From Nitrospirota bacterium (GTDB taxonomy: Bacteria > Nitrospirota > 9FT-COMBO-42-15 > HDB-SIOI813): a stretch of DNA of 64,000 nucleotides. Both the position numbers and the translations under genes were made by a program. The stretch is taken from assembly GCA_016212215.1 (NCBI GenBank), contig JACRGV010000131.1:655-64654 (forward strand), given 5' to 3'. Positions 10,070-56,254 of the stretch are shown here, piece by piece (within the stretch, counting starts at the first letter, position 1; every line of letters starts with the position of its first letter). Below the pieces are notes generated by a model. The model was not told the origin of the DNA. It ran no database searches and saw only the letters and a program-made list of their open reading frames with translations.

Positions 10070-10082
10070 TCGTGAGCGGGGT

Positions 10083-10189
10083 GTTCACAAAGGTGCATGA
10101 AAATCAGCGGGACAAGAATGTCCCGCCTATCCTCATAGAAATGGATAGGCGGGGTTTTCTTACCCCGCCGGAGGTATTTTCGGATGAAC
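10083..10189 (+). repeat. Family A repeat, copy A1
   Basis: GTTCACAAAGG..GAAAATCAGCGGGACAAGAATGTCCCGCCTATCC..GGATAGGCGGGGTTTTCTTACCCCGCCGGAGG..TTTTCGGATGAAC. Confidence 0.9.
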
Positions 10190-10197
10190 CCTAAATA

Positions 10198-11344: not shown

Positions 11345-12616
11345 ATGAGTACACCATTTTCAGGTAACATTGCAACACCATATTCACCGCCGTTCAGTGT
11401 AGTAAAACAGTATTTTATTGCCGCAACAATAACATTTATACTATTGAACGGGATGATGCTGTTAAGCTATCAGTATATACAAGGGTATCATTTCCAGCCG
11501 AGACTCCTGGCCTTTGCCCATATAGCCGTGCTCGGATGGGCAACAATGATTATTATGGGTGCAATGACACAACTTGTCCCTGTTATCCTCGAGACATCAC
11601 TATTTAGTGTGCGGATGGCACGCTGGGGATTATGGTTATTTTTATTGGGTGTATCAGGCATTGCCGGACACTTCTGGCTTTTTGCAACCAGAGGTTCCGG
11701 TATGCTCTCTGCTGCAGGAACAGCTTATGTTGCAATCATCCTGTTTGTCATTAATATTGGTCTGACTCTGAAAAAGGTCAGGAGTATCAACATAAGCTCA
11801 GCCCATATTATTGCTGCAATTACATATCTCGGCATAGTTGCAACTGTAGGTCTGTTACTTGGTATTAATCTTGGTAACCCATTTATAAGAGGCAACCACC
11901 TACACTATCTTGCACTCCATGCGGCATTAGGATTTGCAGGGTGGTTTTCTATGGTTATAATGGGCGTTTCATACAGACTACTCCCGATGTTCACATTATC
12001 TTATTCATATAAGACATGGCCTGGCTGGACGGCATTCGGGCTTGTTAATGCCGGCATATTGGGAGTTGTGATTGAGTTTCTTTTTGATATGCCTCTTTAC
12101 AGTTCGTTAATAATTGCTGCCGGTCTGTTTATGTTCTCCTATCAGGTGGTGCTTATTATAAAGGGGAGGATGCGGAAGGCAATGGACCTTGGCCTTCGCT
12201 ATGCAGTTCTTGCTTATGGCTATATTCCATTAGCGACAGTAGTTGGAGTCTACATAGCACTCAGCCACGCTTTACCTGCAATGAGACAGCGGTTTGTATT
12301 GATATACGGTTTTACAGTGGTATTCGGCTGTATAACTTTTCTGGTTATAGGCATGATGTATAAGGTAGTCCCTTTCCTTGTCTGGTTTCACAAATACAGC
12401 GACAAGGTAGGGAAGGAGAAGGTGCCTCTACTTAAAGATATGTTTTCAGAACGTCTCGGGAATATCCAGTTCTATCTTATAAATATTGGAGTACCGGCTG
12501 TGATAGCAGGTCTTCTAATCGGCAATCAGATTGTAGTCGGTCTCGGTACAGCTATTATGTTCATCGCATCACTGTTGTTCGGATATAATATGCTGATGGT
12601 TTTTACAAGGAAATAA
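11345..12616 (+). CDS. 12-TM membrane protein, heme-copper-oxidase subunit I-like (uncertain)
   Basis: About 12 hydrophobic helices. The motif H..LG(W/F)..M.IMG....L(V/L)P recurs three times. Confidence 0.4.
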   Translation: MSTPFSGNIATPYSPPFSVVKQYFIAATITFILLNGMMLLSYQYIQGYHFQPRLLAFAHIAVLGWATMIIMGAMTQLVPVILETSLFSVRMARWGLWLFLLGVSGIAGHFWLFATRGSGMLSAAGTAYVAIILFVINIGLTLKKVRSINISSAHIIAAITYLGIVATVGLLLGINLGNPFIRGNHLHYLALHAALGFAGWFSMVIMGVSYRLLPMFTLSYSYKTWPGWTAFGLVNAGILGVVIEFLFDMPLYSSLIIAAGLFMFSYQVVLIIKGRMRKAMDLGLRYAVLAYGYIPLATVVGVYIALSHALPAMRQRFVLIYGFTVVFGCITFLVIGMMYKVVPFLVWFHKYSDKVGKEKVPLLKDMFSERLGNIQFYLINIGVPAVIAGLLIGNQIVVGLGTAIMFIASLLFGYNMLMVFTRK

Positions 12617-12658
12617 CCCCATCCCCACCCTGACCCTCCCCTTGAAAGGGAGGGAAAT
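12615..12658 (-). repeat. Family B hairpin repeat (reverse orientation)
   Basis: AACCCCATCCCCACCCTGACCCTCCCCTTGAAAGGGAGGG. Confidence 0.85.
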
Positions 12659-12702
12659 ATCATCACCATCACAGGGATAGGATAAAGGTGAGGGGGGAAA
12701 CA

Positions 12703-16415: not shown

Positions 16416-16521
16416 ACGAAAATCTCCATAGCTCACCCTCCCCCTAACCCCCTCCCGTCAAGGGAGGGGGAATTAACATAGCCCCCTCTCCCCTGGCGGG
16501 AGAGGGTCCGGGTGAGGGGGC
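16416..16521 (-). repeat. Family B hairpin repeats (two units, reverse orientation)
   Basis: CATAGCTCACCCTCCCCCTAACCCCCTCCCGTCAAGGGAGGGGG...CCCCCTCTCCCCTGGCGGGAGAGGG. Confidence 0.85.
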
Positions 16522-16670: not shown

Positions 16671-17707
16671 TGGACAAAGAAAAAGAGATAGAAGAGATTG
16701 AAGAAGATAATGAGGAGGAGGAAGAGGATGAAGAGCCTGATTATCTTTCTATAGAACATACTGGAAAACATATTGAATCCGGCGATGCCGATATAGAGCT
16801 TTCTGATGGAATAGATTATATAGCCGGTATAGATGAACATGCGGCTGACAGATCATTAGTAACTTATGACCCCCTCCAACACTACCTAGCAGAGGTCAGG
16901 AAATACCGCTTCCTGACAAAAGAAGAAGAGCACAGGCTTGCAGTCAAATACAGGGAAGAGGGTGACCTCGATGCTGTATCCAGATTGGTAATGGCAAATT
17001 TAAAGATAGTTGTTGTTATTGCAATGGAGTATAAAAATATTGGAATGAATATGATGGACCTGATTCAGGAAGGAAATCTGGGGCTGATGCAGGCAGTAAA
17101 GAAGTTTGACCCTTACAGAGATATTCGGCTTGTTACTTATGCGGCGTGGTGGGTGAGGGCCTATATTCTTAGATACCTGATCAATAACTGGAGGCTTGTA
17201 AAGATAGGGACAACTCAGGCACAGAGGAAACTGTTTTTTAATTTAATGAAAGAGAAGGCGAGGCTCGAGTCGCTTGGATATGAGGCAGGGCCAAAACTGA
17301 TAGCAAGCGGCCTTGGTGTAAAGGAAAAAGAGGTGATTGAGATGGACCAGCGGCTCGGAAGCCGTGAGATGTCTCTGGATGAACCGGTTAAAGATGATTC
17401 AGAAACATCTTTGATGAGTATAATTCCATCACATGAGCCTGCCATAGATGATAAGCTTGCAGATGAAGAGGTCTCTGCCCTTTTCAAGGAGAAGGTCGCA
17501 GAGTTTATGAAGACAATGAATGAGAGAGACTTAAATATATTACAGAACAGGATACTATCGGAAGAACCAAAGTCCCTCCTTGAAATTGGTGAGTTTTATG
17601 GAATATCGAAAGAGCGTGTTCGCCAGCTTGAGGCAAATATAATAAAGCGGCTCAAAAAATATATTGAGAAGGAGATAAAGGATATTGATGACCTCAGGCC
17701 TGCCTGA
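16670..17707 (+). CDS. rpoH: RNA polymerase sigma factor RpoH (sigma-32-like) with an acidic N-terminal extension
   Basis: Region 2 reads DLIQEGNLGLMQAVKKFDP. An RpoH-box-like QAQRKLFFNL is present. Region 4 reads ISKERVRQLE. Confidence 0.8.
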   Translation: MDKEKEIEEIEEDNEEEEEDEEPDYLSIEHTGKHIESGDADIELSDGIDYIAGIDEHAADRSLVTYDPLQHYLAEVRKYRFLTKEEEHRLAVKYREEGDLDAVSRLVMANLKIVVVIAMEYKNIGMNMMDLIQEGNLGLMQAVKKFDPYRDIRLVTYAAWWVRAYILRYLINNWRLVKIGTTQAQRKLFFNLMKEKARLESLGYEAGPKLIASGLGVKEKEVIEMDQRLGSREMSLDEPVKDDSETSLMSIIPSHEPAIDDKLADEEVSALFKEKVAEFMKTMNERDLNILQNRILSEEPKSLLEIGEFYGISKERVRQLEANIIKRLKKYIEKEIKDIDDLRPA

Positions 17708-18602
17708 TATTGATTTAAATTTAATGGGGAGAACAGCCCTTGTTACAGGCGGGAGTAATGAGATCAGTGGTGCGATTTGTCGAGTCATGGCATCTGCCGG
17801 CGCATCAGTAATTATTCATTACAACAAAAACAGGGAAATTGCAGAGCAGACATGCAAAGATATAATCTCAAGCGGCGGCACAGCAGTTACTTTCAGTACA
17901 GATTTTTCTGATGAAGATTCCATAGACGCTCTTTTCAGCTTTATCAAAGAACGATTCAACCACCTCGACATCCTTGTTAATAATGCCCACCTTCCTCTTA
18001 AAAGAACCTTCCTCAAAGATATAACATGGGAAGAACATCAGGAGCAGATAGACGTTATGGTGAAGGGGACATTCTACTGTTCTAAGAAAGCTATAGAGAT
18101 GATGCGGGAGCCGGTCATGAGCGAGGCGCTCACAAAGGACAATGAAAATGAGTGGGACAAGAATGTCCCACCTATCCTTGATATATATCCGGATAGGCGG
18201 GGTTTTCTTACCCCGCCGGAGGAATTTTCGGGTAAACAGCGTAAAGGCGGCTCAATCATCAACATCCTTACATCACAGACAGAGCATCCTGTAAGCGGCT
18301 ACAGCAGTTATGTAACAGCCGCATCTGCATTAACGGGTTTTACAAGAAATCTTGCTGTAGAGGCGGGATGTATGGGGGTAAGGGTCAACATGATTGCACC
18401 TAACTTTGTCCTTACCTCACATACACCCAACGCACCTCAACACGTCCACGATGCAATTATAAAATCCACACCCCTTGGCCGCCTTGCAACACCGAATGAC
18501 ATAGCAAAGGTTGTCTTATTTTTTGCCTCAGACCTGTCAGAATTTATAACCGGATGCTATTTTGTTGTTGATGGGGGATACGGTTTATCGGGAAGGCGTT
18601 AG
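17685..18602 (+). CDS. Divergent SDR-family protein carrying an in-frame family A repeat
   Basis: TALVTGGS.., NNAH and GGSIINILTS motifs. The expected YxxxK reads YVTAA, so the Lys is absent. About 36 codons (18129-18237) derive from the repeat. Confidence 0.65.
   Translation: MMTSGLPDIDLNLMGRTALVTGGSNEISGAICRVMASAGASVIIHYNKNREIAEQTCKDIISSGGTAVTFSTDFSDEDSIDALFSFIKERFNHLDILVNNAHLPLKRTFLKDITWEEHQEQIDVMVKGTFYCSKKAIEMMREPVMSEALTKDNENEWDKNVPPILDIYPDRRGFLTPPEEFSGKQRKGGSIINILTSQTEHPVSGYSSYVTAASALTGFTRNLAVEAGCMGVRVNMIAPNFVLTSHTPNAPQHVHDAIIKSTPLGRLATPNDIAKVVLFFASDLSEFITGCYFVVDGGYGLSGRR
18129..18237 (+). repeat. Family A repeat, copy A2, inside the SDR CDS
   Basis: CTCACAAAGGACAATGAAAATGAGTGGGACAAGAATGTCCCACCTATCC..GGATAGGCGGGGTTTTCTTACCCCGCCGGAGGAATTTTCGGGTAAAC. 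Confidence 0.9.
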
Positions 18603-18603
18603 G

Positions 18604-18775
18604 AGTTCACTCGAAAATCCCCTCCGGCGGGGTAAGAAAACCCCGCCTATCCATGTGTAAATTTGGGGGAACCCGCCTATCCATGCCTAACCTGAGGATA
18701 GGCGGGACTTTCTTGTCCCGCTGATTTTCATGGCCCTTTGTGAACCCTCGGTTCATGGGAGTTCACCCGAAAATA
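18604..18775 (-). repeat. Family A repeat, copy A3 (reverse orientation, with one arm duplicated)
   Basis: This is the reverse complement of the A consensus, with two GGATAGGCGGG arms. Confidence 0.9.
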
Positions 18776-23423: not shown

Positions 23424-23479
23424 GTAAAATAGGTAAGAGGATGAAGCAAGAAGTGGGAAGTTAGAAGTTAGAAATAAGA
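23417..23479 (+). repeat. Heptamer-periodic tract
   Basis: CAGTAAGTAAAATAGGTAAGAGGATGAAGCAAGAAGTGGGAAGTTAGAAGTTAGAAATAAG. Confidence 0.7.
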
Positions 23480-23590
23480 TTATACGGCCTTTCGGGAATT
23501 TTTCTCTGTTATCTTACATCTTGCCTCTTGCTTCTGTCTTTCCTTCATCTCTTGACACTGATAAAGTTTTCTTCTAATCTCATCACTCAG

Positions 23591-24084: not shown

Positions 24085-24212
24085 CAGCAATTCCCTGTGA
24101 TGTATCAGGCAACTGGCCTTACAGCGGGGTTAGAAAACCCATCCTATAGCGATAGGCGGGACATTCTTGTCCCGCATTCACAAGGGAGAAATATTGTTAC
24201 CAAGAATTGCTG
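24085..24212. mobile_element. 128-bp MITE-like element with 9-bp TIRs and a 9-bp target-site duplication
   Basis: TIRs CAGCAATTC / GAATTGCTG. Flanking direct repeats TTGAAATAT lie at 24076-24084 and 24213-24221. The interior is a family A-like core. Confidence 0.7.
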
Positions 24213-26723: not shown

Positions 26724-26784
26724 TGGTTAGTGAATAGTGATGAGTGAGAAGCGAGAAGTAAGAGGCAAGAAGTAAGAAATAAGA
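26710..26784 (+). repeat. Heptamer-periodic tract starting with AAGACAG
   Basis: AAGACAGTGATTAGTGGTTAGTGAATAGTGATGAGTGAGAAGCGAGAAGTAAGAGGCAAGAAGTAAG. It contains the mreC stop. Confidence 0.8.
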
Positions 26785-26787
26785 TGT

Positions 26788-26853
26788 CGGACGAAAATTC
26801 CCTCCCCTTCAAGGGGAGGGTTAGGGTGGGGATGGGGTTGATTTTCGGATGAA
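26788..26853 (+). repeat. Family B hairpin repeat ending in GATTTTCGGATGAA
   Basis: CGGACGAAAATTCCCTCCCCTTCAAGGGGAGGGTTAGGGTGGGGATGGGGTTGATTTTCGGATGAA. It contains the mreD ATG. Confidence 0.9.
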
Positions 26854-27352
26854 ACTAATTCTATGGTTTATTTCTATAACAGCCCTTATTGCATTCCAGG
26901 GGAGTGTGCTGAATCCTTTTGTGGTGCACGGTATAAGACCTGATTTTATGCTGATTGCAGTATATTTTCTGGGGTTAGGCTATGGCGACATATTCGGTGG
27001 AATCGGCGGGGCAGTTATTGGTTTTATAATGGATGTAATATCAGGAGGTCCTGTTTATTATAACATCTTTACAAAGTTCTTTTCAGGATACCTCGCAGGG
27101 GTCATAGAAAGATGGGTACTACATCACGGATTTATGCTGCATACAGGGGTACTATTTTTATTGTCTTTAGCTCAAAGTATCATAGTATTAATTGCATACA
27201 CGTTTCTTGGAACAATCCAATTTCCTGATGACCTTTTTTATATAGCAATACCTCAGGCTGTCTTTGACGGAATAGCCGGAGGGATTGTTTACCTTCTTCT
27301 TTTCAGGCAGAAGAGGGTTCTTGTATCACGATGGGAGTCATTTGTAAAATGA
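26849..27352 (+). CDS. mreD: Rod shape-determining protein MreD
   Basis: A 167-aa polytopic membrane protein in the mreBCD position. Confidence 0.8.
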   Translation: MKLILWFISITALIAFQGSVLNPFVVHGIRPDFMLIAVYFLGLGYGDIFGGIGGAVIGFIMDVISGGPVYYNIFTKFFSGYLAGVIERWVLHHGFMLHTGVLFLLSLAQSIIVLIAYTFLGTIQFPDDLFYIAIPQAVFDGIAGGIVYLLLFRQKRVLVSRWESFVK

Positions 27353-29148
27353 CAGATTTTCAGGATAAGAACAGGGGGTTACAACAGAGAATAAAATATC
27401 TCAGGACATTCATTATCCTTTTATTTACTATTGTCCTTTTTCGTGGGTGGCACATGCAGATTATCAAAGGGTCATATTATAGAAAACTCTCAGAAGATAA
27501 CCGTGTCAGGACAGTTATAATGCCTCCTCTCAGGGGCATTATATATGACCGCAATGGAGAGATACTGGCGAAGAATGTCCCTTCATTTGATGCAGGCATT
27601 GTTATTGCCGACACAAAAAATCTGAACAGGACTATAAGAAAATTATCACCCCTAATTCATCTTTCGTTTGAAGAGATTAAAGAGAGGATAAAGTATGCAA
27701 AAAATTATGACCCTTTCTCTCCTATATTAATAAAAGAAGACATATCAATAAGGGAGGTTGCCCTGATTGAGTCTCAGGGTTGGAACCTGCCTGGGGTTGT
27801 AACAATCATTGAAGGAAGGCGTGAGTATCCCAATAATGTCCTTGCAGCCCATCTGTTAGGTTATGTAGGAGAGGTTTCGCAGTCTCAGCTCAGGGAAGTT
27901 GATTACTCATCTGAACTGCCCGGAAGAATAATCGGGCAGAATGGTATAGAGAAGGAATACGATAGCCTGCTCAGGGGCAGGGTCGGCAGAAAAAACATTG
28001 AAGTAGACGCATCCGGCCATGAACGTCAGATACTGGATATTTCTGAACCAATAGCCGGGGATAACATAGTTTTGGCAATAGATATAGGATTACAACGTGC
28101 TGCTGAAGATGCACTTGGGGACAGGAGAGGGGCCGTAGTTGTACTGGATTCAGATACAGGAGAGGTGCTTGCATTGGCCAGTCACCCGGCGTATGACCCT
28201 AATGTCTTGTCAAGGAGGCTACTGCCTAGTGTATGGAAAAAGATTGCTGAAGACCCTGGTCATCCATTAAACAACAGGGCAATACAGGGTACTTATCCTC
28301 CAGGCTCAGTCTTTAAAATACTCATGGCTACCGCAGGTCTTGAGGGGGGGTATATTGACCCGGGCGGAAGAATAGCATGCAGCGGCGGGATGCAGTTCGG
28401 TAACAGGTTTTACAGGGACTGGACATCAGTCGGCCACGGGTCAGTTGATCTGCATAAGGCGATTACACAGTCCTGTGATGTATATTTTTATCAGCTTGGG
28501 AACCGTATGCAGATTGATACAATTGCAAATTATGCAATGCAATTCGGTCTTGGAGAGCCTACAGGGATTGATCTCCCTTCTGAAAAGAAAGGTCTTGTCC
28601 CCTCCACACAATGGAAACTTAATGCCAGAAAGGAACGCTGGTATGCCGGGGAGACTTTATCAGTAGCCATTGGACAGGGGTATCTTTCAGTGACCCCTTT
28701 ACAACAGGCTGTAATGGTAAACACAGTGGTCAATTCCGGTTCATTAAAAAGGCCGAGGGTGCTTAAAGGCATAATCTCTGATAAGGAGAAAAAGACTTAT
28801 GAATTTTCATCTGTTGAGGTACGTAAGATTGATATGAAGGAGTCTACCCTTAAAAATATAAAGAGCGCCTTACACGGGGTTGTGAATGAACCCGGGGGCA
28901 CAGGAGGGGCTGCCAGAAGTTATCTGATTGATGTTGGAGGTAAGACAGGAACGGCACAGGCTGTTGGGAGGCAGTCCGTCACCGGTCTGAATGACCATGC
29001 ATGGTTTGCCGCATTTGCACCCGTTGATAAACCAAAGATAACCGTTTCTGTGCTTGTGGAACACGGCGGACACGGCGGCAGCGCTGCCGCACCGGTGGCT
29101 AAGAAGATAATTGAGGAATATTTTAAGACAGTGAATAGTGATGAGTGA
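27349..29148 (+). CDS. mrdA: Penicillin-binding protein 2 (elongasome transpeptidase)
   Basis: SVFK (SxxK) and KTGTA motifs, with a dimerisation domain. The start is chosen at MTDFQDKNRG. Confidence 0.9.
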   Translation: MTDFQDKNRGLQQRIKYLRTFIILLFTIVLFRGWHMQIIKGSYYRKLSEDNRVRTVIMPPLRGIIYDRNGEILAKNVPSFDAGIVIADTKNLNRTIRKLSPLIHLSFEEIKERIKYAKNYDPFSPILIKEDISIREVALIESQGWNLPGVVTIIEGRREYPNNVLAAHLLGYVGEVSQSQLREVDYSSELPGRIIGQNGIEKEYDSLLRGRVGRKNIEVDASGHERQILDISEPIAGDNIVLAIDIGLQRAAEDALGDRRGAVVVLDSDTGEVLALASHPAYDPNVLSRRLLPSVWKKIAEDPGHPLNNRAIQGTYPPGSVFKILMATAGLEGGYIDPGGRIACSGGMQFGNRFYRDWTSVGHGSVDLHKAITQSCDVYFYQLGNRMQIDTIANYAMQFGLGEPTGIDLPSEKKGLVPSTQWKLNARKERWYAGETLSVAIGQGYLSVTPLQQAVMVNTVVNSGSLKRPRVLKGIISDKEKKTYEFSSVEVRKIDMKESTLKNIKSALHGVVNEPGGTGGAARSYLIDVGGKTGTAQAVGRQSVTGLNDHAWFAAFAPVDKPKITVSVLVEHGGHGGSAAAPVAKKIIEEYFKTVNSDE

Positions 29149-29182
29149 ATAGTGAATAGTAAGAAGAAGCAAGAGGTAAGAT
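29125..29182 (+). repeat. Heptamer-periodic tract starting with AAGACAG
   Basis: AAGACAGTGAATAGTGATGAGTGAATAGTGAATAGTAAGAAGAAGCAAGAGGTAAG. It encodes the last 7 codons and the stop of mrdA. Confidence 0.8.
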
Positions 29183-29184
29183 AA

Positions 29185-29319
29185 CGGATGAATATTCCCT
29201 CCCCCTTGACGGAGGAGGGGCAGGGTGGGGGTGAACTCTGAAAATTCCCTCCCCTTCAAGGGGAGGGTGCTAAGTTCATCCCCCCTCCCTTGACGGGAGG
29301 GGGTTAGGGGGAGGGTGTG
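29185..29319 (+). repeat. Family B hairpin repeats (three units)
   Basis: Three CCCTCCCC..GGGGAGGG-type hairpins. The 3' end, GGGAGGGTGTGC, contains the rodA GTG. Confidence 0.9.
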
Positions 29320-30429
29320 CTTAAAAAAAATCCATTAGCTTTAATTGACTGGAAGGCGCTGGCAATAATTGCTGTAATACTTTTTATAGGGGTATTAACT
29401 ATATTCAGTGCTACTTACAACAGTTCAGGCGGGGGGATACCTTTATATTATAAACAGGCAGGTTGGATTGCTATAGGGATGGTATTCTTTTTTGCCGGGG
29501 CAACCATAGATTACCAGACTATTGCAAAATATGCATATCCATTATATGCAGTATCACTGTTATTACTGGTTCTCGTAATGGTTATTGGGAGAAGTGGTTT
29601 CGGTGCACAGAGGTGGCTGTCTGTAGGAGGCTTCTCATTCCAGCCATCAGAGCTTGCAAAACTGGCGACTGTACTTGCAATAACAAGATATTTTTCCGAT
29701 TATCCTGCCAGGTATGGTTATACTGTTAAAGAGTTATTTATACCCGGGGTTGTTATTGCTATTCCGGTACTGCTTGTATTGAAACAGCCTGACCTTGGAA
29801 CAGCCCTTGTAATAACATTTGTATCATTGGGGCTTATATATCTTGTAAGGATACGTTCAAAGTTTTTTGGTCTTTCAATGCTGATAGGGATAATGACATT
29901 TCCCTTCCTCTGGCAGTTATTCTGGGAGAGTCTAAAAGGGTATCAAAAGATACGTCTTATGACATTCGTAAATCCAATGGCTGATCCTAGGGGCACAGGC
30001 TATCATATCATTCAATCCAAGATAGCTGTCGGCTCCGGTGGATTCATGGGAAAGGGGCTGTTTGAGAGCACACAGAGTCACCTGAATTTCCTTCCTGCGC
30101 GGCACACAGACTTCATTTTTTCAGTATTTTCTGAAGAGTGGGGATTCATAGGTCTTGCAGTGCTCATGTTGCTCTACCTTGGTCTGATAACATGGGGATT
30201 GGATACAGCAATAAAGTCCAGAGACAGGCTTGGGATGTTGATGGGCAGCAGTCTGGTATGTCTCTTTACATGCTACTGTCTTATAAACATCGGGATGACC
30301 CTTGGGATAGTCCCTGTAGTGGGAATACCACTGCCCCTTATGAGCTACGGCGGCACCTCTTTAATTACTACCTTGTTTTCTCTCGGTATATTATTTAATA
30401 TAAAGAAAAAAAGGTACCTGTTTTCGTAA
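29317..30429 (+). CDS. rodA: Rod shape-determining protein RodA (SEDS family)
   Basis: About 10 TM segments with QPSELAK and FIFSV..EE.GF motifs. GTG is the only in-frame start after the TAG at 29305. Confidence 0.85.
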   Translation: MLKKNPLALIDWKALAIIAVILFIGVLTIFSATYNSSGGGIPLYYKQAGWIAIGMVFFFAGATIDYQTIAKYAYPLYAVSLLLLVLVMVIGRSGFGAQRWLSVGGFSFQPSELAKLATVLAITRYFSDYPARYGYTVKELFIPGVVIAIPVLLVLKQPDLGTALVITFVSLGLIYLVRIRSKFFGLSMLIGIMTFPFLWQLFWESLKGYQKIRLMTFVNPMADPRGTGYHIIQSKIAVGSGGFMGKGLFESTQSHLNFLPARHTDFIFSVFSEEWGFIGLAVLMLLYLGLITWGLDTAIKSRDRLGMLMGSSLVCLFTCYCLINIGMTLGIVPVVGIPLPLMSYGGTSLITTLFSLGILFNIKKKRYLFS

Positions 30430-30575: not shown

Positions 30576-30666
<91 letters not shown>

Positions 30667-30745: not shown

Positions 30746-30869
30746 GCAGTTGAGTATGGGGCTGGGGCCTGTGCGACACGGACTTACGAACCCCGTCAGG
30801 TCCGGAAGGAAGCAGCGGTAAGTAAATCTCCGTGTGTGCCGCAGATTTCCCTTGTCCTGTCTCAACTGC
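30746..30869 (+). ncRNA. ffs: Signal recognition particle RNA (small/4.5S type)
   Basis: Contains the conserved domain IV sequence GTCAGGTCCGGAAGGAAGCAGC...CGTGTGTGCCG. The closing stem is GCAGTTGAG/CTCAACTGC. The ends are approximate. Confidence 0.85.
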
Positions 30870-30885
30870 GTAGAGGAGATACTAA

Positions 30886-30964
30886 AAGAAAGTGATTAGT
30901 GATGAGTGATGAGTAAAAACACATTCCCCGTTACTAACTACTAATTTCTAATTACTAATTAACA
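30886..30964 (+). repeat. Heptamer-periodic tracts (GTGATKA units, then TTACTAA units)
   Basis: AGTGATTAGTGATGAGTGATGAGTAA ... TTACTAACTACTAATTTCTAATTACTAATTAAC. Confidence 0.75.
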
Positions 30965-32788
30965 ATGTCTTATCAGGTTCTCGCAAGAAAGTGGCGTCCA
31001 AATACATTTCAGGAACTTACCGGCCAGGGGCATGTATCAAAGACAATTGAAAATGCTATAAAGTCTGAACGTATTGCCCATGCCTATTTATTCTCAGGGG
31101 TCAGAGGTGTCGGGAAGACTACTGTGGCAAGGATACTTGCCAAGTCTTTAAACTGTGCTGAAGGCCCGACCGCAATCCCATGTATGAAGTGTCAATCCTG
31201 TCATGAGATTACCGGAGGTTATGCAGTAGACGTAGTAGAGATAGATGGTGCATCTCATACAGGTGTGGATAATATAAGGGAGCTTCAGGAGAATGCTCAG
31301 TATGCCCCGCTCAGAGGCCGCTACAAGATATACATAATTGATGAAGTCCACATGCTGTCTACCTCAGCATTTAATGCCCTGCTGAAGATACTGGAAGAAC
31401 CGCCTCCACACATTGTCTTTATTTTTGCCACAACAGAGCCTCATAAGATTCCTGCTACAATACACTCAAGGTGCCAGACCTACCAGTTCCGCAGGATTAG
31501 TTATAAGGAGATAATGGAGAGGCTTCAATTCATCCTCCATGAGGAGGGTATCAAGGCCGGTGAATCCGCACTCTCTATTGTGGCAAGGGCATCTGACGGA
31601 AGCATGAGGGATGCACTCAGCCTTCTTGATCAGGTGATTGCCTATACCGGCGAAAATATCACTGATGAGGATGTGGCGTGGATACTTGGTACGGCGGAGC
31701 ATCTTACAGTCCATCTTATACAACACATTCTTAACAAAGATTCAGCAGGGGCATTGAACATATTAAAAGAGTTATCAGACGGCGGCTATGATATCAAGCA
31801 GTTCCTCCTTAATATTGTTGAACATATAAGAAATCTTACGATGATAAAACTTGGGGTTGGAGGGGATGTGATAGACCTCCCGTCAGAAGAAATTGCAGCG
31901 GCTTCAAAATTGGCAGAAGGTGTTCCTATTGAAGATTTCCAGAGGCTGTTCGGGATATTTTCATCCGCCCTTGAAGAGATGCGCTGGTTCCCATATCCGA
32001 GATTCTCACTTGAGATGGCTGTGATAAAGGCATCAAACATGAGGCCGGTTGTCCCTGTAGATGACCTGCTTGCAAAATTACAGGATATAGAACATCGTAT
32101 GGTATCCGGTGTGCCGCCAATGGGTCTAAAGGGTGGTGAAAATCAGCGGGACAAGAATGTCCCGCCTATCCTCAATTTAGGCGTGGATAGGCGAGGTGTT
32201 CCAACCACGCCGGAGGGATTTTCGGGTAAAGCATCTATGCGTGTACCACTCACAAAGGACGATGAAGATTCCCTCCCCTTCAAGGGGAGGGTTAGGGTGG
32301 GGATGGGGTTATCTTCTGATGAAAACAAGCAGGAAACATCAGATAATCAGGCCATGCCTATTAAAGATGAAAGTGATTTAAAATCAGTATGGAAGAGCAT
32401 AGTGGGAAGGATATTAGAGCGAAAGCCGAGCCTTGGCTCTTATATTGAGCAGAGTATACCGCTTGGAATTTCTGAAGGGATACTGACTATCGGTTTTAAC
32501 GGCGGCGCTTCTGTGTTCATAACCTTATTAGACAGGAAGGATAGTAAAGACTATATCCTTGAAGTTGTTAAAGGTTATATGCAGGGAGTCAGCGGGATAA
32601 GATTTACTACAGCGTCAGATAAAACAGAGAACAACCCTGCACCGGCGTATGAAGAGTATGTTGCCACAGCACATGAAAAACAACAGGAAGAGGTGGATGA
32701 TGCATTCTCAGACCCTATTGTTCAGGAGGCAATTGATATTTTAGGCGGAGAACTTGTAGAATTAAGGAATAAAAAGCAGATTAATTAA
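30965..32788 (+). CDS. dnaX: DNA polymerase III subunit gamma/tau, with in-frame family A and B repeats in the post-domain-III linker
   Basis: GVRGVGKTT Walker A, Zn module CMKCQSC, DEVHML, SRCQ. Repeat-derived codons occupy 32126-32310. Confidence 0.9.
   Translation: MSYQVLARKWRPNTFQELTGQGHVSKTIENAIKSERIAHAYLFSGVRGVGKTTVARILAKSLNCAEGPTAIPCMKCQSCHEITGGYAVDVVEIDGASHTGVDNIRELQENAQYAPLRGRYKIYIIDEVHMLSTSAFNALLKILEEPPPHIVFIFATTEPHKIPATIHSRCQTYQFRRISYKEIMERLQFILHEEGIKAGESALSIVARASDGSMRDALSLLDQVIAYTGENITDEDVAWILGTAEHLTVHLIQHILNKDSAGALNILKELSDGGYDIKQFLLNIVEHIRNLTMIKLGVGGDVIDLPSEEIAAASKLAEGVPIEDFQRLFGIFSSALEEMRWFPYPRFSLEMAVIKASNMRPVVPVDDLLAKLQDIEHRMVSGVPPMGLKGGENQRDKNVPPILNLGVDRRGVPTTPEGFSGKASMRVPLTKDDEDSLPFKGRVRVGMGLSSDENKQETSDNQAMPIKDESDLKSVWKSIVGRILERKPSLGSYIEQSIPLGISEGILTIGFNGGASVFITLLDRKDSKDYILEVVKGYMQGVSGIRFTTASDKTENNPAPAYEEYVATAHEKQQEEVDDAFSDPIVQEAIDILGGELVELRNKKQIN
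32126..32229 (+). repeat. Family A repeat, copy A5, inside dnaX
   Basis: GGTGAAAATCAGCGGGACAAGAATGTCCCGCCTATCC..GGATAGGCGAGGTGTTCCAACCACGCCGGAGGGATTTTCGGGTAAA. Confidence 0.9.
32261..32310 (+). repeat. Family B repeat inside dnaX
   Basis: GATGAAGATTCCCTCCCCTTCAAGGGGAGGGTTAGGGTGGGGATGGGGTT. From ATTCCC onward it is identical to the intergenic copy at 26797-26839. Confidence 0.9.
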
Positions 32789-32790
32789 CG

Positions 32791-32839
32791 GAGAAGTTAG
32801 AAGCAAGAAGTTAGAAGTCAGAAGCAAGAAATAAGAATA
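32791..32839 (+). repeat. Heptamer-periodic tract (7 NAGAAGY units in register)
   Basis: GAGAAGT TAGAAGC AAGAAGT TAGAAGT CAGAAGC AAGAAAT AAGAATA. Confidence 0.85.
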
Positions 32840-32859
32840 TACTATCAGGAGGGAGAAAA

Positions 32860-33183
32860 ATGTCAAAGAAGATGTTCGGTGATATTATGAAGCAGGCCCA
32901 GAAGATGCAGGAACAGCTTGCAAAGATTCAGGAGGAGGCGGCTAATAAAACAGTAGAAGCATCATCAGGCGGCGGAATGGTGTCAGTTACTGCAAACGGC
33001 CGTCAGGAGGTGCTCTCAATAAAAATTGAAAAGGATGTAGTAAATCCTGATGACGTGGATATGCTTCAGGACCTTATTCTCGCCGCAACTAATGAGGCAT
33101 TGAGAAAATCAAAGGACATGATGGCAGAAGAGATGAAGGGGATGACAGGCGGGATGGGGATGAATATCCCTGGCCTGTTTTAA
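32860..33183 (+). CDS. ybaB: YbaB/EbfC nucleoid-associated protein
   Basis: [11 protein letters not shown]...[11 protein letters not shown]....I...V.P.D.EMLQDLI. It is in the conserved dnaX-ybaB-recR position. Confidence 0.9.
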
Positions 33184-33188: not shown

Positions 33189-33326
33189 GGATTTTCGGGT
33201 GAACTCATATGAGCCGAGGGTTCACAAAGGGCCATGAAAATCAGCGGGACAAGAAAGTCCCGCCTATCCTCGTAGAAATGGATAGGCGGGGTTTTCTTAC
33301 CCCGCCGTAGAGGATTTCCGGATGAA
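33189..33326 (+). repeat. Family A repeat, copy A6 (full length)
   Basis: GGATTTTCGGGTGAAC..GTTCACAAAGGGCCATGAAAATCAGCGGGAC..CCCGCCGTAGAGGATTTCCGGATGAA. It contains the recR ATG. Confidence 0.9.
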
Positions 33327-33909
33327 AGACAATTTATTTAATCATTTAATTGAGCAATTGAAAAAATTTCCAGGCGTTGGCCAGAAGACTGCTCAGCGGC
33401 TTGCTTTCTTCCTATTAAAAGCAAATGCGGATGATGCAAAGGCGATAGCAGAGGCTATTATTGCAGTTAAGGATAATATCCGATTCTGTTCAGTATGTAA
33501 TAATATTACCGAAGAAGACCCGTGCCGTATTTGCAGTGATTCTAACAGGGACAGGAAAAAGATACTTGTTGTGAAAGAGCCAAGCACCCTTTACACAATC
33601 GAACGTACAGGCGGTTACAAAGGCTTATACCATGTCATGTTAGGTACAATATCCCCTTTGGATGGGATAGGCCCGGATGATATAAAGATTGCCGGATTAT
33701 TAAAGAGAGTTGAACAGGATGCAATCGAAGAGGTAATACTTGCCCTTGATCCTGACATGGCAGGAGAGGCGACCGCCATGTATCTTACACGCCTGCTGAA
33801 ACCTTTTGAGGTACACGTAACCCGTATTGCCTACGGTATACCGGTCGGCAGTGATATTGAATATGCCGATGAACTCACTCTTGTTAAATCCCTTGAAGGC
33901 AGAAGGTGA
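33322..33909 (+). CDS. recR: Recombination protein RecR
   Basis: LKKFPGVGQKTAQRLAFFLL HhH motif, C4 zinc finger CSVC..CRIC, and a Toprim domain. Confidence 0.9.
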   Translation: MKDNLFNHLIEQLKKFPGVGQKTAQRLAFFLLKANADDAKAIAEAIIAVKDNIRFCSVCNNITEEDPCRICSDSNRDRKKILVVKEPSTLYTIERTGGYKGLYHVMLGTISPLDGIGPDDIKIAGLLKRVEQDAIEEVILALDPDMAGEATAMYLTRLLKPFEVHVTRIAYGIPVGSDIEYADELTLVKSLEGRR

Positions 33910-35524: not shown

Positions 35525-35833
35525 CTAACGCACCGTCTTTAAACAGTCTGTATTTGTCATAATTATGGCAAGCAAGGACTGGCTCTGTGAATAATCCTTT
35601 ACCTGACGCACGGCTTCATCATAAGCAGTCTCCGGAAGATTGGGATTAAACTTTATAATCGCCTGTTGCAAATATCGCGTGAGCACCACCTCCCTGTCTG
35701 AATTTCTTCCTAAAAGCCCATCACGGCCAAAGGTTTCCTGATTATAGGCATACACAGTGTCCCATCCGAGATGGTCCCGAAGGTAATCTGCGGTTGTCTG
35801 CTGAACTAATGTATCTTCGTTAAAATAGGTCAT
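35525..35833 (-). pseudogene. hsdR: Type I restriction enzyme R subunit, N-terminal fragment (about 100 aa; frameshifted and truncated)
   Basis: MTYFNEDTLVQQTTADYLRDHLGW..LGR.SDREVVLTRYL is a typical HsdR N-terminus. An HsdR-like continuation (YRLFKDGALVSFQG) lies in another frame, and no helicase domain follows. Confidence 0.7.
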
Positions 35834-36999: not shown

Positions 37000-37411
37000 C
37001 GGCTATCCTTTTGTATGGTGTTTTATGCAAAACAAATTCTACCAAAAGGAGAGCAATTTTTCATCAAAAAAATCCACTTAAGTTATAACTTTTGCAAGAG
37101 CCTAATCTTGTAACCAGCATTGCGGGAGAAGAAGAGTTCAGACCCTCTCTGTTTCCTGACCTGATTATCGCTCTCAAAGAAATCTGGAAGTAAAATTGAT
37201 ATTGGAGGATTTTGTTACCTTCATCCGTAACCCCCTCCTGAGCCACTCTAATCAACAAATTATTTATCTTTTTATACACTCTGATTTTATGGTAAAATTA
37301 GCCGTTTTTTTATTATGTAGCAAAATTGCAAGAAAGAAATATTCAAAAAGGGAGTGACATCTTTATAGTTGACTCCAGTGACCAGAATTGGAATGCCAGA
37401 GAGTGACGGGT

Positions 37412-43000: not shown

Positions 43001-43267
43001 GCAGGAGATGCAGGGGTCTGTGTATCTGGCATGGACGCCCTGTTTGTTCTTTATCTTAATCGCCAGTTTATCGTGACAATCAAGACAATTGCTGTCCGGA
43101 ACCCCGCCTCTCAGCTTATGACATTTTGTACAATTGGAAATGCCTTCGAATTTTGCATGAGGGGCCGCCAGCTTGCCGGGGCTTATGAGAGTCTCCATAC
43201 TGTCCTGAGCAAAGGAAGCTGACGAGATGAGGAGAAAACTTAGTAAGAAAAATATATATTTGTTCAT
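40079..43267 (-). CDS. Giant multiheme c-type cytochrome (cytochrome c3/c7-like repeats), secreted
   Basis: Signal peptide MNKYIFFLLSFLLISSASFA. My manual count is about 41 CxxCH plus 4 C-x4-CH (CNSADCH) motifs. There are internal tandem modules of about 71 aa and about 47 aa. Confidence 0.9.
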   Translation of the reverse strand: MNKYIFFLLSFLLISSASFAQDSMETLISPGKLAAPHAKFEGISNCTKCHKLRGGVPDSNCLDCHDKLAIKIKNKQGVHARYTDPCISCHSDHKGRGYQMISLDEKKFDHKLTDYPLEDKHAETSCNKCHKKSGVYTGLKQDCLSCHKDYHNSQLDKDCSRCHNIKGWKDIKKFNHNTNSKYILADKHIEVKCAKCHTKGRYKPLNYKTCNSADCHTDPHKKQLAGKTCESCHTTKGWKTILFDHNAPEYKGYKLDGKHLKVECEKCHTKGRFKPLNYKTCNSSDCHNDPHKKQFEGKTCESCHTTMDWKSVLFDHNAPAYKGYKLEDKHLKVDCEKCHTKGRYKPLNFKTCNSADCHTDPHKKQFEGKTCESCHTTKGWQTTSFDHNATAYKGYKMEGKHIEVKCEKCHTKGRYKPLKYKTCDSADCHTDPHKKQFADKTCESCHVTKDWKSILFEHNAPEYKGYKLDGKHLKTDCEKCHADGKYRPIEQECLTCHKKDDVHKEELGKNCKKCHTTEDWKKTTLNHNLQTKFPLIGKHKDTECEKCHKEKRYKTKAERCVDCHKDIHKGEFKEECSSCHTQFDWEARKFDHKKRTGFELKGLHNDVPCNYCHKSKDNYKKVNRYCNQCHTDPHLNQFGSIECSKCHSQNSWQAVGFRHNDTGFPLSGKHRDAECQECHKNRQYRGTSSVCVNCHLSTYYSAPNHLLRAYSQDCTQCHNVSAASWSFKHINITGTTSNCSNCHLSAKPLSHTANPAAYPDTCETCHTSIVSWGSRKHTSVTTGCAACHSSYSNPQKPASHTANTWTTCETCHKYPAWAFTHPSAITDCSTCHLTYSNPVKPSSHPANNWTKCGSCHTFTQGASWSFTHPTAKTGCSTCHTSYSTPKKPGDHTTNNWTTCENCHKSTTAWTFSHSISTSGCSVCHTSYSTPAKPTSHTTNNWTTCEDCHKSTTAWTFTHSAVKSGCSTCHATKSTPAKPADHTANNWTTCETCHKSTTTWTFTHPSTTFPLNHRGTNPADCAACHPAVAYKNSGGCTTCHGNEHKKNYTNSQCLNCHPTGRGD

Positions 43268-43401
43268 CCGAAAATCTCCTCCGGCGGGGTAAGAAAACCC
43301 CGCCTATCCAAATCAACGAGGATAGGCGGGACATTCCTGTCCCGCTGATTTTCATGGCCCTTTGTGAACCATGGTTCATGACGGTTCACCCGAAAATCTC
43401 C
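43262..43401 (-). repeat. Family A repeat, copy A7 (full length, reverse orientation)
   Basis: The reverse complement reads GGAGATTTTCGGGTGAAC..GTTCACAAAGGGCCATGAAAATCAGCGGGAC..CCGCCGGAGGAGATTTTCGGATGAAC. It contains the cytochrome ATG. Confidence 0.9.
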
Positions 43402-46054: not shown

Positions 46055-46097
46055 TTCTCCCCTCCCCTTGCGGGAGGGGATTAAGGGGAGGGGGGGT
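46055..46097. repeat. Family B-type hairpin
   Basis: TCTCCCCTCCCCTTGCGGGAGGGGATTAAGGGGAGGGGGGG. Confidence 0.75.
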
Positions 46098-46199
46098 CTA
46101 CCTTTCTTTAATTTATTCAGATATAATCCCATTTAAATCGTGAATCATTTTAAACTTTAGAGAAGCCGGTGTAAAGAGATAAAACAGGAGGTAATATAA

Positions 46200-48327: not shown

Positions 48328-48365
48328 GAGTGACCCCATGAGCTCATGACTCACAAAGGATAAGG

Positions 48366-48410
48366 GAAATTCCCTCTCCCTCAGGGAGAGGGTCAGGGTG
48401 AGGGTGGGTT
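48366..48410 (+). repeat. Family B hairpin repeat
   Basis: GAAATTCCCTCTCCCTCAGGGAGAGGGTCAGGGTGAGGGTGGGTT. Confidence 0.85.
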
Positions 48411-48456
48411 ATTTTGTATGTACGTTTAACCAACAAGCAGAAAGGAGAGTAGAACA

Positions 48457-53128: not shown

Positions 53129-53141
53129 AGGAGAGTTATGA

Positions 53142-54233
53142 ATGGCAAGAGATAATGCGATTGAAGTAAATAATGTATTTTTTACGTATCCTGATGGGCA
53201 TGATGTAATAAAGGGGATTTCATGTAACATCGGGCATGGTGAAAAGGTTGCATTGATCGGGCCTAATGGTGCAGGAAAGTCCACATTTATGAGTTTATTA
53301 AACGGTGTACTGCTGTCCAGTGATGGGAAGGTTGTAATAGATGGGTTGGAAATAAGAAAAGAGAATCTTATCGAGGTGCGGAAAAAGGTAGGTATAGTTT
53401 TCCAGGACCCTGATGATCAGCTCTTTTGTCCTACAGTGTTTGACGATGTTGCATTTGGCCCTCTTAATCTTGGCCTTTCGAAAGATGAGATACATAGCCG
53501 TGTTAAAGACGCCCTTGAGATGGTTGGTTTAACAGGCCGTGAAGAGCGCCCGTCATTTCACCTGTCATTTGGTGAGAGAAAGCGTCTTGCACTTGCAACA
53601 GTTTTATCATACCAGCCTGAGATACTTGTATTTGATGAACCTTCTACCAATATGGACCCCCTCAGCCGCAGGAGAATGATAGATTGGCTGAAGACTTCAG
53701 ATAAAACCATTCTTCTGTGTACCCATGACCTTGATATTGCATTAGAGGTATGTTACCGCTGTATCGTATTGACAGACGGCAAAATTGTTGCGGATGGGCT
53801 TGCCTCAGAAATACTTTATGACCGTAAGTTACTTGAGGCAAACAGTCTTGAATTACCGCTGGCGCTACAGACACATGAATTACTCCACGACATGCTTCAC
53901 TCAGCAACGATGGACGAGGAACACCGCGATATTATCAAAAACTTTCTTCATGCTCATCTTCATATACACGGTCCGGATCAGCATAAGCATGTCCACTTGC
54001 ATGCACATGAACATGGACATGAACATCTTCACGAAGAGACTGTTCCTGAGACCCACATTCATGAATTAAAGCACCCTGAACATTCACCTGAACATCCTGA
54101 TGTAATAGTCCCACATTCGCATGAGCATGAGAAAAAACCGGATAAAGAGCCTGCCCCGCAAAAGGGCACCAGACCAAAACGCAAACTCTTCGGCGGCGGC
54201 CATTCCCACGGCGACGGGTTTCATACGCATTGA
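53142..54233 (+). CDS. cbiO: ECF transporter ATPase CbiO/NikO with a His-rich C-terminal extension of about 120 aa
   Basis: GPNGAGKST, LSFGERKR and FDEPS motifs. The tail is HAHLHIHGPDQHKHVHLHAHEHGHEHLH...HSHEHE...GGGHSHGDGFHTH. Confidence 0.85.
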   Translation: MARDNAIEVNNVFFTYPDGHDVIKGISCNIGHGEKVALIGPNGAGKSTFMSLLNGVLLSSDGKVVIDGLEIRKENLIEVRKKVGIVFQDPDDQLFCPTVFDDVAFGPLNLGLSKDEIHSRVKDALEMVGLTGREERPSFHLSFGERKRLALATVLSYQPEILVFDEPSTNMDPLSRRRMIDWLKTSDKTILLCTHDLDIALEVCYRCIVLTDGKIVADGLASEILYDRKLLEANSLELPLALQTHELLHDMLHSATMDEEHRDIIKNFLHAHLHIHGPDQHKHVHLHAHEHGHEHLHEETVPETHIHELKHPEHSPEHPDVIVPHSHEHEKKPDKEPAPQKGTRPKRKLFGGGHSHGDGFHTH

Positions 54234-54243
54234 TCCGCAGGGC

Positions 54244-54318
54244 TCATCCGAAAATCAACCCCATCCCCACCCTAACCCTCCCCTTGAAGGGGAGGGAATA
54301 AACTTGGCACCCTCTCCC
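54244..54318 (-). repeat. Family B hairpin repeat (reverse orientation) with the CATCCGAAAATC end
   Basis: TCATCCGAAAATCAACCCCATCCCCACCCTAACCCTCCCCTTGAAGGGGAGGG. Confidence 0.85.
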
Positions 54319-54439
54319 ACATATTGCTTAACTCAATCTCAATCTTATTCTTAATCCTACTTCTTGCTTCTCACTTCTTTCTTTTGATCTTTCCCTTGAG
54401 CATTGACACTTATAGCCATTTCGAGTAACCTACAAATCC

Positions 54440-56231: not shown

Positions 56232-56254
56232 AACCTCAGTGGGATTCTAATAAT

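Follow-up and report, generated by a model that had tools for sequence, protein, structure and literature searches.

Repetitive extragenic palindromic (REP) sequences, including those of REPIN type, are palindromes that are mobilised by REP-associated tyrosine transposases (RAYTs) (Bertels & Rainey, 2011, PMC3116915; PMC3337134). REPs of the GTAG and CGTC types, as singles, dimers or clusters, can be read through in frame, encoding 20-82 amino acids, and intragenic copies are often located in genes of DNA replication and repair (uvrABCD, recBCD, polA, dnaE2 and R. conorii dnaE), where it has been suggested that they occupy linkers or loops (Di Nocera et al., 2013, PMC3733652). In two Xanthomonas species different REPs occupy approximately the same recB site (PMC3733652). 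The Rickettsia palindromic elements (RPEs) carry the CGTC tag, and CGTC REPs are without a dedicated transposase (PMC3733652). RPEs are palindromes of ~100-150 bp that lie in unrelated housekeeping genes, always in keeping with the host frame and at sites predicted to be surface or permissive ones, with nearly half of the copies intragenic and with families specific to Rickettsia (Ogata et al., 2000, PMC10969869). In-frame fusions are also on record for bacterial MITEs (miniature transposable elements with inverted repeats), namely ERIC, BOX, Nezha and the Anabaena MITEs (PMC10969869). Here we describe the dnaX gene (DNA polymerase III gamma/tau; 30965..32788, + strand) of a Nitrospirota bacterium, found in a 64,000-nucleotide stretch of contig JACRGV010000131.1 (hereafter the window), in which two adjacent repeats, one from each of two families termed A and B, lie within the open reading frame.

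Translated intragenic palindromes are already known, and it seems that dnaX as a host gene and the Nitrospirota as a host lineage are new as far as found. The dnaX gene is unnamed in the text of PMC3733652, no dnaX or tau entry occurs in those of its supplementary files that were searched, and the Nitrospirota are not covered there. The literature search returned no paper on dnaX with intragenic palindromes and none on REPs in Nitrospirae.

Two repeats in the reading frame of dnaX

The dnaX gene is a single intact open reading frame (ORF) of 607 amino acids in both the ORF list and the alignment of orthologues, and its product has AAA+ domains I-III and, after them, a C-terminal domain that is conserved, as judged from Pfam, NCBIfam, the alignment and AlphaFold. 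The Pfam domains DNA_pol3_delta2 (residues 21-178), DNAX_ATPase_lid (183-229) and DNA_pol3_gamma3 (232-366) place clamp-loader domains I-III at residues 21-366, with domain III ending at about residue 366. The match to the NCBIfam model dnaX_nterm (TIGR02397) reaches 460 bits (cutoff 250), and the C-terminal 140 residues are collinear and in frame with those of the orthologues. An AlphaFold2 prediction made on the orthologue alignment gave predicted local distance difference test (pLDDT) values below 50 for residues 384-469, with confident domains on either side, and the folded C-terminal domain starts at about residue 469. Nearly all of positions 32111-32337 (residues ~383-458) is repeat-derived, family A accounting for residues ~383-425 and family B for residues ~428-458, and both repeats are predicted to fall in the disordered stretch that links domain III to the conserved, tau-specific C-terminal domain. 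A preliminary description of this stretch had placed two repeats in the dnaX frame just past domains I-III, in the linker; both the position and the open frame are borne out, and the gene is neither split nor frameshifted in the assembled sequence. The figure of about 60 extra residues given at that time needs revision, as ~75 residues are repeat-derived and the net gain is smaller (607 residues vs 592 in the closest full-length orthologue). The repeats make up ~85% of the linker in this genome and are not just an addition to it. The peptides that they are predicted to encode are NVPPILNLGVDR, GVPTTPEGFSGK and VGMGLSSDENK.

Family A was modelled in nhmmer from three intergenic copies only, so that the copies in dnaX and in a second host gene, which encodes a short-chain dehydrogenase/reductase (SDR)-family oxidoreductase, are independent of the model. 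This profile matches dnaX at 32122-32231 (E=9e-24) and the SDR gene at 18116-18237 (E=4e-29). When every copy is included in the model, the dnaX element spans 32111..32238 (+ strand; E=3e-36), which upholds the presence of family A and widens the boundaries first proposed for it (32126-32229). The window contains six full copies and one partial copy of the family. Four of the full copies are intergenic and abut gene ends: one in the ybaB-recR spacer (33207..33333, +); one that begins 1 nucleotide (nt) past the stop codon of a Crp-family gene at 9359-10069 (10070..10194, +); one at the start of a 1062-residue multihaem cytochrome gene at 40079-43267 on the - strand (43256..43381, -); and a composite copy with three REP modules directly downstream of the SDR gene (18600..18758, -), recognised from two nhmmer hits and an alignment. 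The partial copy comprises REP modules only (24118..24175, -; E=4e-11). Family A is, in this respect, multicopy, mainly extragenic and located near gene ends, as REPs are.

The core of family A has the form GCGGGACAAGAATGTCCCGC-CTATCC, a 10-14 nt spacer, and GGATAG-GCGGGGTTTTCTTACCCCGCC. It consists of a pair of GC hairpins, one inverted relative to the other, and at the foot of each is an unpaired (G)ATAG; the two modules, GGATAG+GCGGGGTTTTCTTACCCCGC(C) and GCGGGACAAGAATGTCCCGC+CTATCC, are near reverse complements of one another. This is the palindrome-with-foot-tag arrangement of a REP in variant form: the tag is ATAG in nearly all of ~55 module instances and GTAG in one that has the stem and loop of the family. 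Across genomes the loop TTTTC(T/C)AA and the ATAG tag are fixed while the stems covary, and the variants GCGGGG/CCCCGC, GCGGGA/TCCCGC, ACGGGG/CCCCGT, GTAGGG/CCCTGC, TCGGGG/CCCCGA and CCGGGG/CCCCGG are all paired at 6/6 positions, this being a count over pattern-selected instances and not a formal covariation test. In the intergenic copy at 33219-33326 the two modules pair into one long hairpin, as is expected of a REPIN (-48.2 kcal/mol; z=-4.9; 0/200 shuffles as stable), and the fold of the dnaX copy is less exceptional (z=-2.2). On the basis of these features, family A may be placed in the GTAG super-family, as a REPIN-type element that carries an ATAG tag.

Within dnaX, the A copy runs from left motif TCTAAAGGGTGGTGAAAATCA to right motif GGAGGGATTTTCGGGTAAA. 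Hairpin 1 (GCGGGACAAGAATGTCCCGC) lies at 32146-32165 and is followed by CTATCC at 32166-32171, GGATAGG occupies 32185-32191, and hairpin 2, at 32190-32211, has diverged to GGCGAGGTGTTCCAACCACGCC, in which one pair is broken. This copy is ~80-84% identical to the other A copies and has private substitutions and flanks. Two or three of the six frames of the element are open, varying by copy.

The right end of family A (CCGGAGG.ATTTTCGGATGAAC) carries a Shine-Dalgarno-like GGAGG 8-9 nt 5' of an ATG. In the copy at 33207-33333 this end (AGAGGATTTCCGGATGAA) provides a Shine-Dalgarno-like site and the ATG of recR (33322); the ybaB-recR gap is 138 nt here vs 1 nt in four related loci, in which RecR is 3 residues longer. 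Similarly, the right end of the copy at 43256-43381(-) (GGAGGAGATTTTCGGATGAAC) supplies a Shine-Dalgarno-like site and the start codon of the multihaem cytochrome, the N-terminus of which (MNKYIFFLLSF…) is signal-peptide-like. The intragenic copies in dnaX and the SDR gene have GGGTAAA in place of GGATGAA at this end. On the antisense strand, hairpin 1 together with GATTTTCAT at 33243-33264 (-) scores as intrinsic-terminator-like, and A copies could halt antisense or convergent transcription.

Family B was treated in the same manner. A profile built from four intergenic B copies only matches dnaX at 32248-32337 (+ strand; E=7e-21), so that the presence of family B at this point stands, with a length of ~90 nt in place of the 50 nt (32261-32310) originally assigned to it. 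The element consists of a C-rich/G-rich hairpin of 9-10 bp, after which come successive G-tracts. In dnaX it extends from left motif CTCACAAAGGACGATGAAGAT to right motif TATCTTCTGATGAA, with the hairpin CCCTCCCCTT-C-AAGGGGAGGG at 32271-32291 and the G-tract tail GGGGAGGGTTAGGGTGGGGATGGGG at 32284-32308; the sequence of the tail fits a sense-strand G-quadruplex motif. The 41-mer ATTCCCTCCCCTTCAAGGGGAGGGTTAGGGTGGGGATGGGG (ATTCCC...GATGGGG) has three exact occurrences, at 26797(+), at 32268(+) and at 54259(-), and a fourth that differs by 3 mismatches, at 12617(-), against an expectation of 0 from dinucleotide shuffles. Indeed, positions 32268-32310 are identical at 43/43 nucleotides to 26797-26839, as had been reported from the ATTCCC onward, and also to the reverse complement of 54257-54299. 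The copies with this identical core are intergenic and lie in the mreC-mreD spacer (26772..26876, +) and at 54219..54325 (-). A further copy (12576..12682, -) overlaps the final ~40 nt of the ORF at 11345-12616, and a diverged one (48343..48444, +) has the stem CCCTCTCCC/GGGAGAGGG and left motif CTCACAAAGGATAAGGGAAAT. Related C-rich/G-rich hairpin and G-tract variants were seen at 3463-3528, 8622-8701, 16415-16489, 29171-29338, 46056-46106, 50643-50668 and 56251-56294; their stems differ by compensatory changes, and three of them stand in a row upstream of rodA (29171-29338).

The two families have common flank motifs, (T)CACAAAGG..ATGAAAAT on the left and ATTTTCGGATGAA(C) on the right, both of which have diverged in the dnaX copies. 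Because of these common flanks A and B are not fully independent: they are two cores in one common frame, and the earlier notion of two different elements applies to the cores.

Lineage specificity and turnover at the host sites

The DnaX alignment contains 29 orthologues, across which the linker is hypervariable, and A or B peptides are found in none of the full-length proteins in it. Apart from the closest full-length orthologue, most full-length proteins, down to ~60% identity, have 553-586 residues. The closest relative (locus L001, protein P0002) is 90% identical in nucleotide and 92% in amino acid sequence over domains I-III and is without A and B, as is the dnaX gene of L002/P0003. Over the first 1140 nt of the gene the window groups with L001 (90% nucleotide identity) and L002 with L063 (87%), and identity between the two groups is ~81%. 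The DNA of L001 and L002 aligns with the window up to ~32110 and again from ~32320, and not between. The dnaX gene of L063 has an A copy in the same place and frame as that of the window, and its sister L002 has none. The comparison of orthologues that had been proposed as a check therefore shows both repeats to be lineage-specific, with no homologous residues in orthologues at 60-92% identity.

The A-bearing gene of L063 (L063:712-2007) stops 15 codons past the repeat, and the next 75 nt are unlike dnaX. It is either a contig chimera formed at the repeat or a truncated, gamma-only-like gene.

Other relatives have other sequences in this linker. That of L003 contains a B-like double hairpin, and further orthologues contain other GC hairpins. 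The dnaX genes of L003 and L056 (L003:1606-1855; L056:3902-4151) are 97.5% identical in nucleotide sequence except for ~130 nt of linker, in which the two have unrelated hairpin repeats, and this difference looks like a cassette replacement. The repeats in the linkers of L003, L056, L057 and L058 were not found a second time within the respective 6-22 kb loci, and their repeat nature is consequently judged from hairpin shape and peptide signatures only.

The second intragenic A copy (18115..18243, +) is a 41-codon in-frame insertion in the SDR gene (17685..18602, +), which encodes 305 residues vs 255-274 in most orthologues. Pfam finds adh_short and adh_short_C2 in two stretches each (adh_short 17-141, adh_short_C2 186-299). 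The insertion lies between a helix (115-141) and a strand (190-194), just ahead of the conserved GGSIINI, and in an AlphaFold model residues 142-189 are coil, mostly with pLDDT <50, which predicts that the A copy sits in a surface loop. Clean empty sites are present in the orthologous DNA of L061 and L062 (~82% identity), and no duplication is visible between filled and empty sites. The same loop holds a different short hairpin repeat in P0122 and P0123 and a B-like repeat in P0124, and is empty in P0125 and P0126; P0123 (filled) and P0125 (empty) are sisters with 92% identity. The orientation and frame of family A are the same in the SDR gene (…ENEWDKNVPPILDIYPDRRGFLTPPEEFSGK…) as in dnaX (…ENQRDKNVPPILNLGVDRRGVPTTPEGFSGK…), and the same frame is used in L063 dnaX and in a membrane protein gene of L076, both found by DNA, and in a P-type ATPase (P0265) found by peptide search.

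The site comparisons (L003/L056, P0123/P0125 and L063/L002) thus indicate that the repeats at the dnaX linker and in the SDR loop turn over faster than the genes around them diverge.

Family A hairpins and RAYT genes in other genomes

A scan with a 24-nt hairpin-1 pattern, which has three degenerate positions (two in the stem, one in the loop) and was applied to one genome per species, returned 52 loci (L004-L055) from at least six phyla, many of them in metagenome-assembled genomes (MAGs) from groundwater. The MAGs are labelled Omnitrophota, Dadabacteria, Schekmanbacteria, Deltaproteobacteria/Thermodesulfobacteriota (Desulfobacterota), Planctomycetia and Nitrospirae. Both A hairpin modules are kept in these loci. 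Binning contamination is a possible source of the spread across phyla.

Clustering of the ORFs in the 52 loci gave one recurrent neighbour, a Y1 transposase of 150-170 residues, the gene for which lies within 100 nt of the hairpin in 5/52 loci (L023, L024, L052, L037 and L045). Three of these five genes, and one more distant Y1 gene, match Pfam Y1_Tnp, and both of the hairpin-adjacent genes that were scanned with NCBIfam match the equivalog REP_Tyr_transpos (112-119 bits; cutoff 80). In L023 the core of family A (hairpin 1-CCTATCC-9 nt-GGATAGG-hairpin 2) comes after the transposase gene. The RAYT genes beside A hairpins, exemplified by L023:2159-2671, L052:1757-2266 and L037:5456-5935, belong to Omnitrophota and Deltaproteobacteria MAGs, and the hairpin-adjacent RAYTs are only 47-54% identical between phyla.

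Some 30 annotated 'hypothetical proteins' (P0241-P0294) of 42-75 residues in one Nitrospirae MAG (HZA08_00055 to HZA08_14305) are translations of family A. They came from a word-index protein search with the A peptide, which missed long host proteins and is a census of mini-ORFs only. These proteins are spurious gene calls from the open frame of the element, and from their number it follows that family A is abundant genome-wide in at least one relative, or possibly in the genome from which the window itself comes.

Family A resembles the REP/REPIN-RAYT systems in its GC-rich hairpin with a 4-nt foot tag, in the inverted pair that folds as one, in its many copies, mostly extragenic and near gene ends, and in that the same hairpins flank RAYT genes elsewhere. 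It differs from them in its tag, which is ATAG and not GTAG, in its arm loops (AAGAATG vs TTTTCTTA), in its extra conserved flanks, which include the end with the Shine-Dalgarno-like site and ATG, and in that the window itself is without a RAYT gene. The degenerate tags GYAG, GTRG and GTGG are given for REPs, and ATAG is not among them (PMC3733652). REPIN-RAYT systems are described as mostly vertically inherited (10.1101/2022.05.22.493013), unlike the hairpin-1 pattern of family A with its occurrence in at least six phyla. The intragenic REPs of PMC3733652 provide a close parallel, with repeats read through in replication and repair genes, a suggested location in linkers or loops and different repeats at about one site; what sets the present case apart is the presence of two families side by side and the apparent turnover of cassettes between genes that are 97.5% identical.

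The likeness to RPEs drawn in the preliminary description holds for the way in which the elements work, that is, as palindromes open in frame in housekeeping genes (here dnaX, the SDR gene, L063 dnaX, the membrane protein gene of L076 and the P-type ATPase P0265). It does not extend to identity. Family A has a GTAG-type tag (ATAG/CTAT, not the CGTC of RPEs), a link to RAYTs, mostly intergenic copies and a Nitrospirota host, and RPE identity was rejected on tag and host, not on RPE consensus sequences. With MITEs the repeats have in common a small size, a structured sequence and a lack of autonomy, as well as the occurrence of some copies inside genes with one frame open. In classical MITEs the terminal inverted repeats come from insertion sequences and there is a target-site duplication, whereas here only short imperfect inverted flanks (GAAAAT / ATTTTC; …ATGAAAAT / ATTTTCGGATGAA, shared by A and B) were found, the filled and empty SDR sites show no duplication, and no parent insertion sequence was found. 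A known structured RNA was also rejected, since no Rfam family matches A or B at gathering thresholds (only the signal recognition particle (SRP) RNA and tRNAs matched). Three further candidates were set aside on general grounds: an intein or intron, for which the elements are far too small, an integron attC site, and a CRISPR repeat, as the copies are dispersed on both strands and not regularly spaced.

The dnaX gene is preceded by genes for tRNA-Ser (30576-30665, +) and SRP RNA (30760-30858, +) and followed by ybaB (32860-33183, +) and recR (33322-33909, +). The dnaX-ybaB spacer is 71 nt long and contains heptanucleotide repeats, vs 6 nt in relatives. Heptanucleotides in tandem, either (A/G)GAAG(N)(N) or GTGA(T/A)(T/G)A in type, fill many intergenic spacers of the window (3278-3415, 15546-15607, 23426-23536, 26703-26798, 29104-29166, 30879-30960, 32776-32850, 50989-51026, 53051-53132, 54344-54379 and 56121-56229), and their orientation tends to follow that of the flanking genes. 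An ORF of 621 residues (38116-39981, -) unites an N6/N4 DNA methylase domain with Peptidase_S24 and the DNA-binding domain of LexA; beside it lie a RhuM-family gene (35830-36867) and a gene whose product is a restriction endonuclease of the MvaI/BcnI type (37388-38119), and the ORF is either an unusual LexA-methylase fusion or a mis-joined ORF in this defence-like islet. A 189-nt direct repeat (58622-58810 and 60674-60862; 98% identity) brackets ~2 kb that encode DUF3037, DUF1828/DUF1829 and a HEPN/nucleotidyltransferase pair, and adjoins a Type ISP restriction-modification gene (60870-63962). Units of 135 nt and of 213 nt, 61-78% identical, recur in tandem within the multihaem cytochrome gene (40260-40937 and 41801-42739) and are presumably duplicated haem-binding modules.

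Origin of the intragenic copies

Taken as a whole, the data are probably best explained if the two non-autonomous repeats are tolerated passengers in the disordered linker of DnaX. Family A would most likely move as single-stranded DNA by means of a RAYT, of the IS200/IS605 Y1 family, encoded elsewhere in the genome, and family B would probably ride the same machinery, or share the target of family A, within the same short flank motifs. Both copies would by chance leave the frame of dnaX open, and almost any hydrophilic sequence would be tolerated in the linker; with an open frame and a tolerant linker, dnaX stays intact and the repeats would be transcribed and translated as ~75 residues of extra or replacement linker. 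They would then be tolerated selfish DNA and not a functional module. The same logic may apply to the surface loop of the SDR protein, such that permissive sites act as sinks, where the gain, exchange and loss of repeats outpace divergence of the host gene. Coding sequence makes up ~85% of the window, and of the 11 full copies of A and B just three lie within genes (P=3e-5), all three of them in frame and at positions predicted to be disordered. This scarcity of intragenic copies is the pattern expected from the purging of disruptive insertions.

Several observations weigh against such a passive account. No transposase or RAYT gene was found by a Pfam scan among the ~57 ORFs of the 64-kb window, so that mobilisation of family A by a RAYT in this genome would have to be argued by analogy with other phyla; family B is without a demonstrated transposase link, and the ATAG tag is not the canonical GTAG. 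Neither a clean empty site nor a target-site duplication was found in dnaX in the nucleotide alignment with the two closest loci, and for this reason an insertion is indistinguishable there from the recombinational replacement of an older repeat. The account also supposes both that the repeats are translated and that they are neutral. Moreover, all of the intragenic A copies found by DNA (4/4: dnaX, the SDR gene, L063 and L076) have one orientation and one frame, and this single frame, together with three different repeats in one SDR loop, hints at more than random hits followed by selection. The one orientation and frame and the re-use of one loop leave room for targeting or for the exchange of cassettes through the common flanks.

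An exchange of this kind is the rival that we take most seriously, although we regard it as unlikely. An older repeat would already have resided in the dnaX linker and in the SDR loop, and the present cores would have been swapped in by gene conversion or homologous recombination, the donors being copies elsewhere in the genome or in other strains and the flanks …CACAAAGG..ATGAAAAT / ATTTTCGGATGAA the homology; the hotspots would simply be inherited occupied sites. The left and right flanks that A and B have in common, in dnaX as well as in the intergenic copies, are consistent with this, as are a dnaX B core identical at 43/43 positions to two other copies whose flanks differ, the L003 and L056 genes that differ only in the linker cassette, an SDR tree that groups genes with different cassettes (P0121, P0122 and P0124) and contains the filled and empty sisters P0123 and P0125, and a dnaX gene without an empty site or target duplication. 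However, the flank motifs are short (8-20 nt) and imperfect and would be a poor substrate for RecA-dependent recombination, the clean empty SDR sites of L061 and L062 show that true gain or precise loss happens, and the presence of A in the dnaX genes of the window and L063, and not in the sister of each, fits independent gain equally well as loss. It is far harder to credit that the repeats are an assembly artefact, in which reads from intergenic repeats were threaded into dnaX or contigs were joined at a repeat. The contig (73 kb) does look metagenome-assembled, repeats are classic sites of misassembly, and L063 is possibly such a chimera. Against this, dnaX sequence lies on either side of the repeats and is collinear and in frame with that of the orthologues; the private substitutions and flanks of the dnaX copies, with ~80-84% identity of A to its other copies, indicate that they were not copy-pasted; an artefact that set two unlike repeats next to one another and still left the frame open would be improbable; and the related L063 contig, from a separate project, independently shows an A copy at the same place in dnaX. 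The notion that the residues are an ancient protein segment, with the intergenic repeats derived from it or similar by chance, deserves practically no credence: only the open frame speaks for it, and it is refuted by the orthologue alignments, in which no homologous residues occur at 60-92% identity, and by the intergenic-only profiles, A being present at least six and B at least five times in 64 kb, mostly between genes and on both strands, and A also in many other genomes.

In E. coli, dnaX makes gamma just after domain III by programmed -1 frameshifting. A comparable use of the A element, in which frameshifting or stalling would yield a gamma-like product of 391 residues that ends just past domain III, is a very unlikely reading of the present locus, although several features of the site recall it. 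A heptamer A_AAG_GGT at 32128-32134 (+) is in the correct phase for -1 slippage, the -1 frame (AAA GGG TGG TGA) meets an early stop at 32137-32139, and hairpin 1, with a perfect 8-bp GC-rich stem, begins 11 nt 3' of the heptamer; the position past domain III is that of the E. coli gamma end, and the A-bearing dnaX ORF of L063 ends 15 codons past its element. The differences from E. coli dnaX are nevertheless considerable. Efficient bacterial slippery sequences do not include A_AAG_GGT, re-pairing of the A site from GGT to GGG would be poor, and the 11-nt spacer exceeds the usual 5-9 nt. The heptamer is part of the A consensus (CAAAGGGCCATGA) and would therefore be there by descent and not by selection in dnaX. 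It is not conserved in relatives, as L063 is without it and L001 and L002 are without both heptamer and hairpin. A terminator scan found no sense-strand terminator in 32111-32337, and the truncation in L063 may be an assembly chimera at the repeat. The boldest combination, in which this Nitrospirota clade would keep rebuilding the tau linker and certain enzyme loops from REP/REPIN cassettes that home to sites already occupied, and in which A would also make a gamma-like subunit in the lineage of the window, by frameshifting or stalling, is likewise very unlikely; were it true, a mobile repeat would have re-invented the gamma/tau split.

Overall, the present case extends translated intragenic REP/REPIN insertions to the Nitrospirota and to dnaX, a gene that is essential in model bacteria. 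The pair of REP hairpins with its RAYT, nearly unchanged in at least six phyla, may outweigh the dnaX case in general interest, and such repeats give rise to spurious 'hypothetical protein' annotations by the dozen and can lead to chimeric contigs. The disordered linker and the enzyme loop provide two natural experiments in which the same codon position is empty or differently filled in close relatives, and they let one ask whether such hotspots arise via targeting, cassette exchange or selection alone. They also raise the question of how much of the sequence of disordered linkers is recycled selfish DNA.

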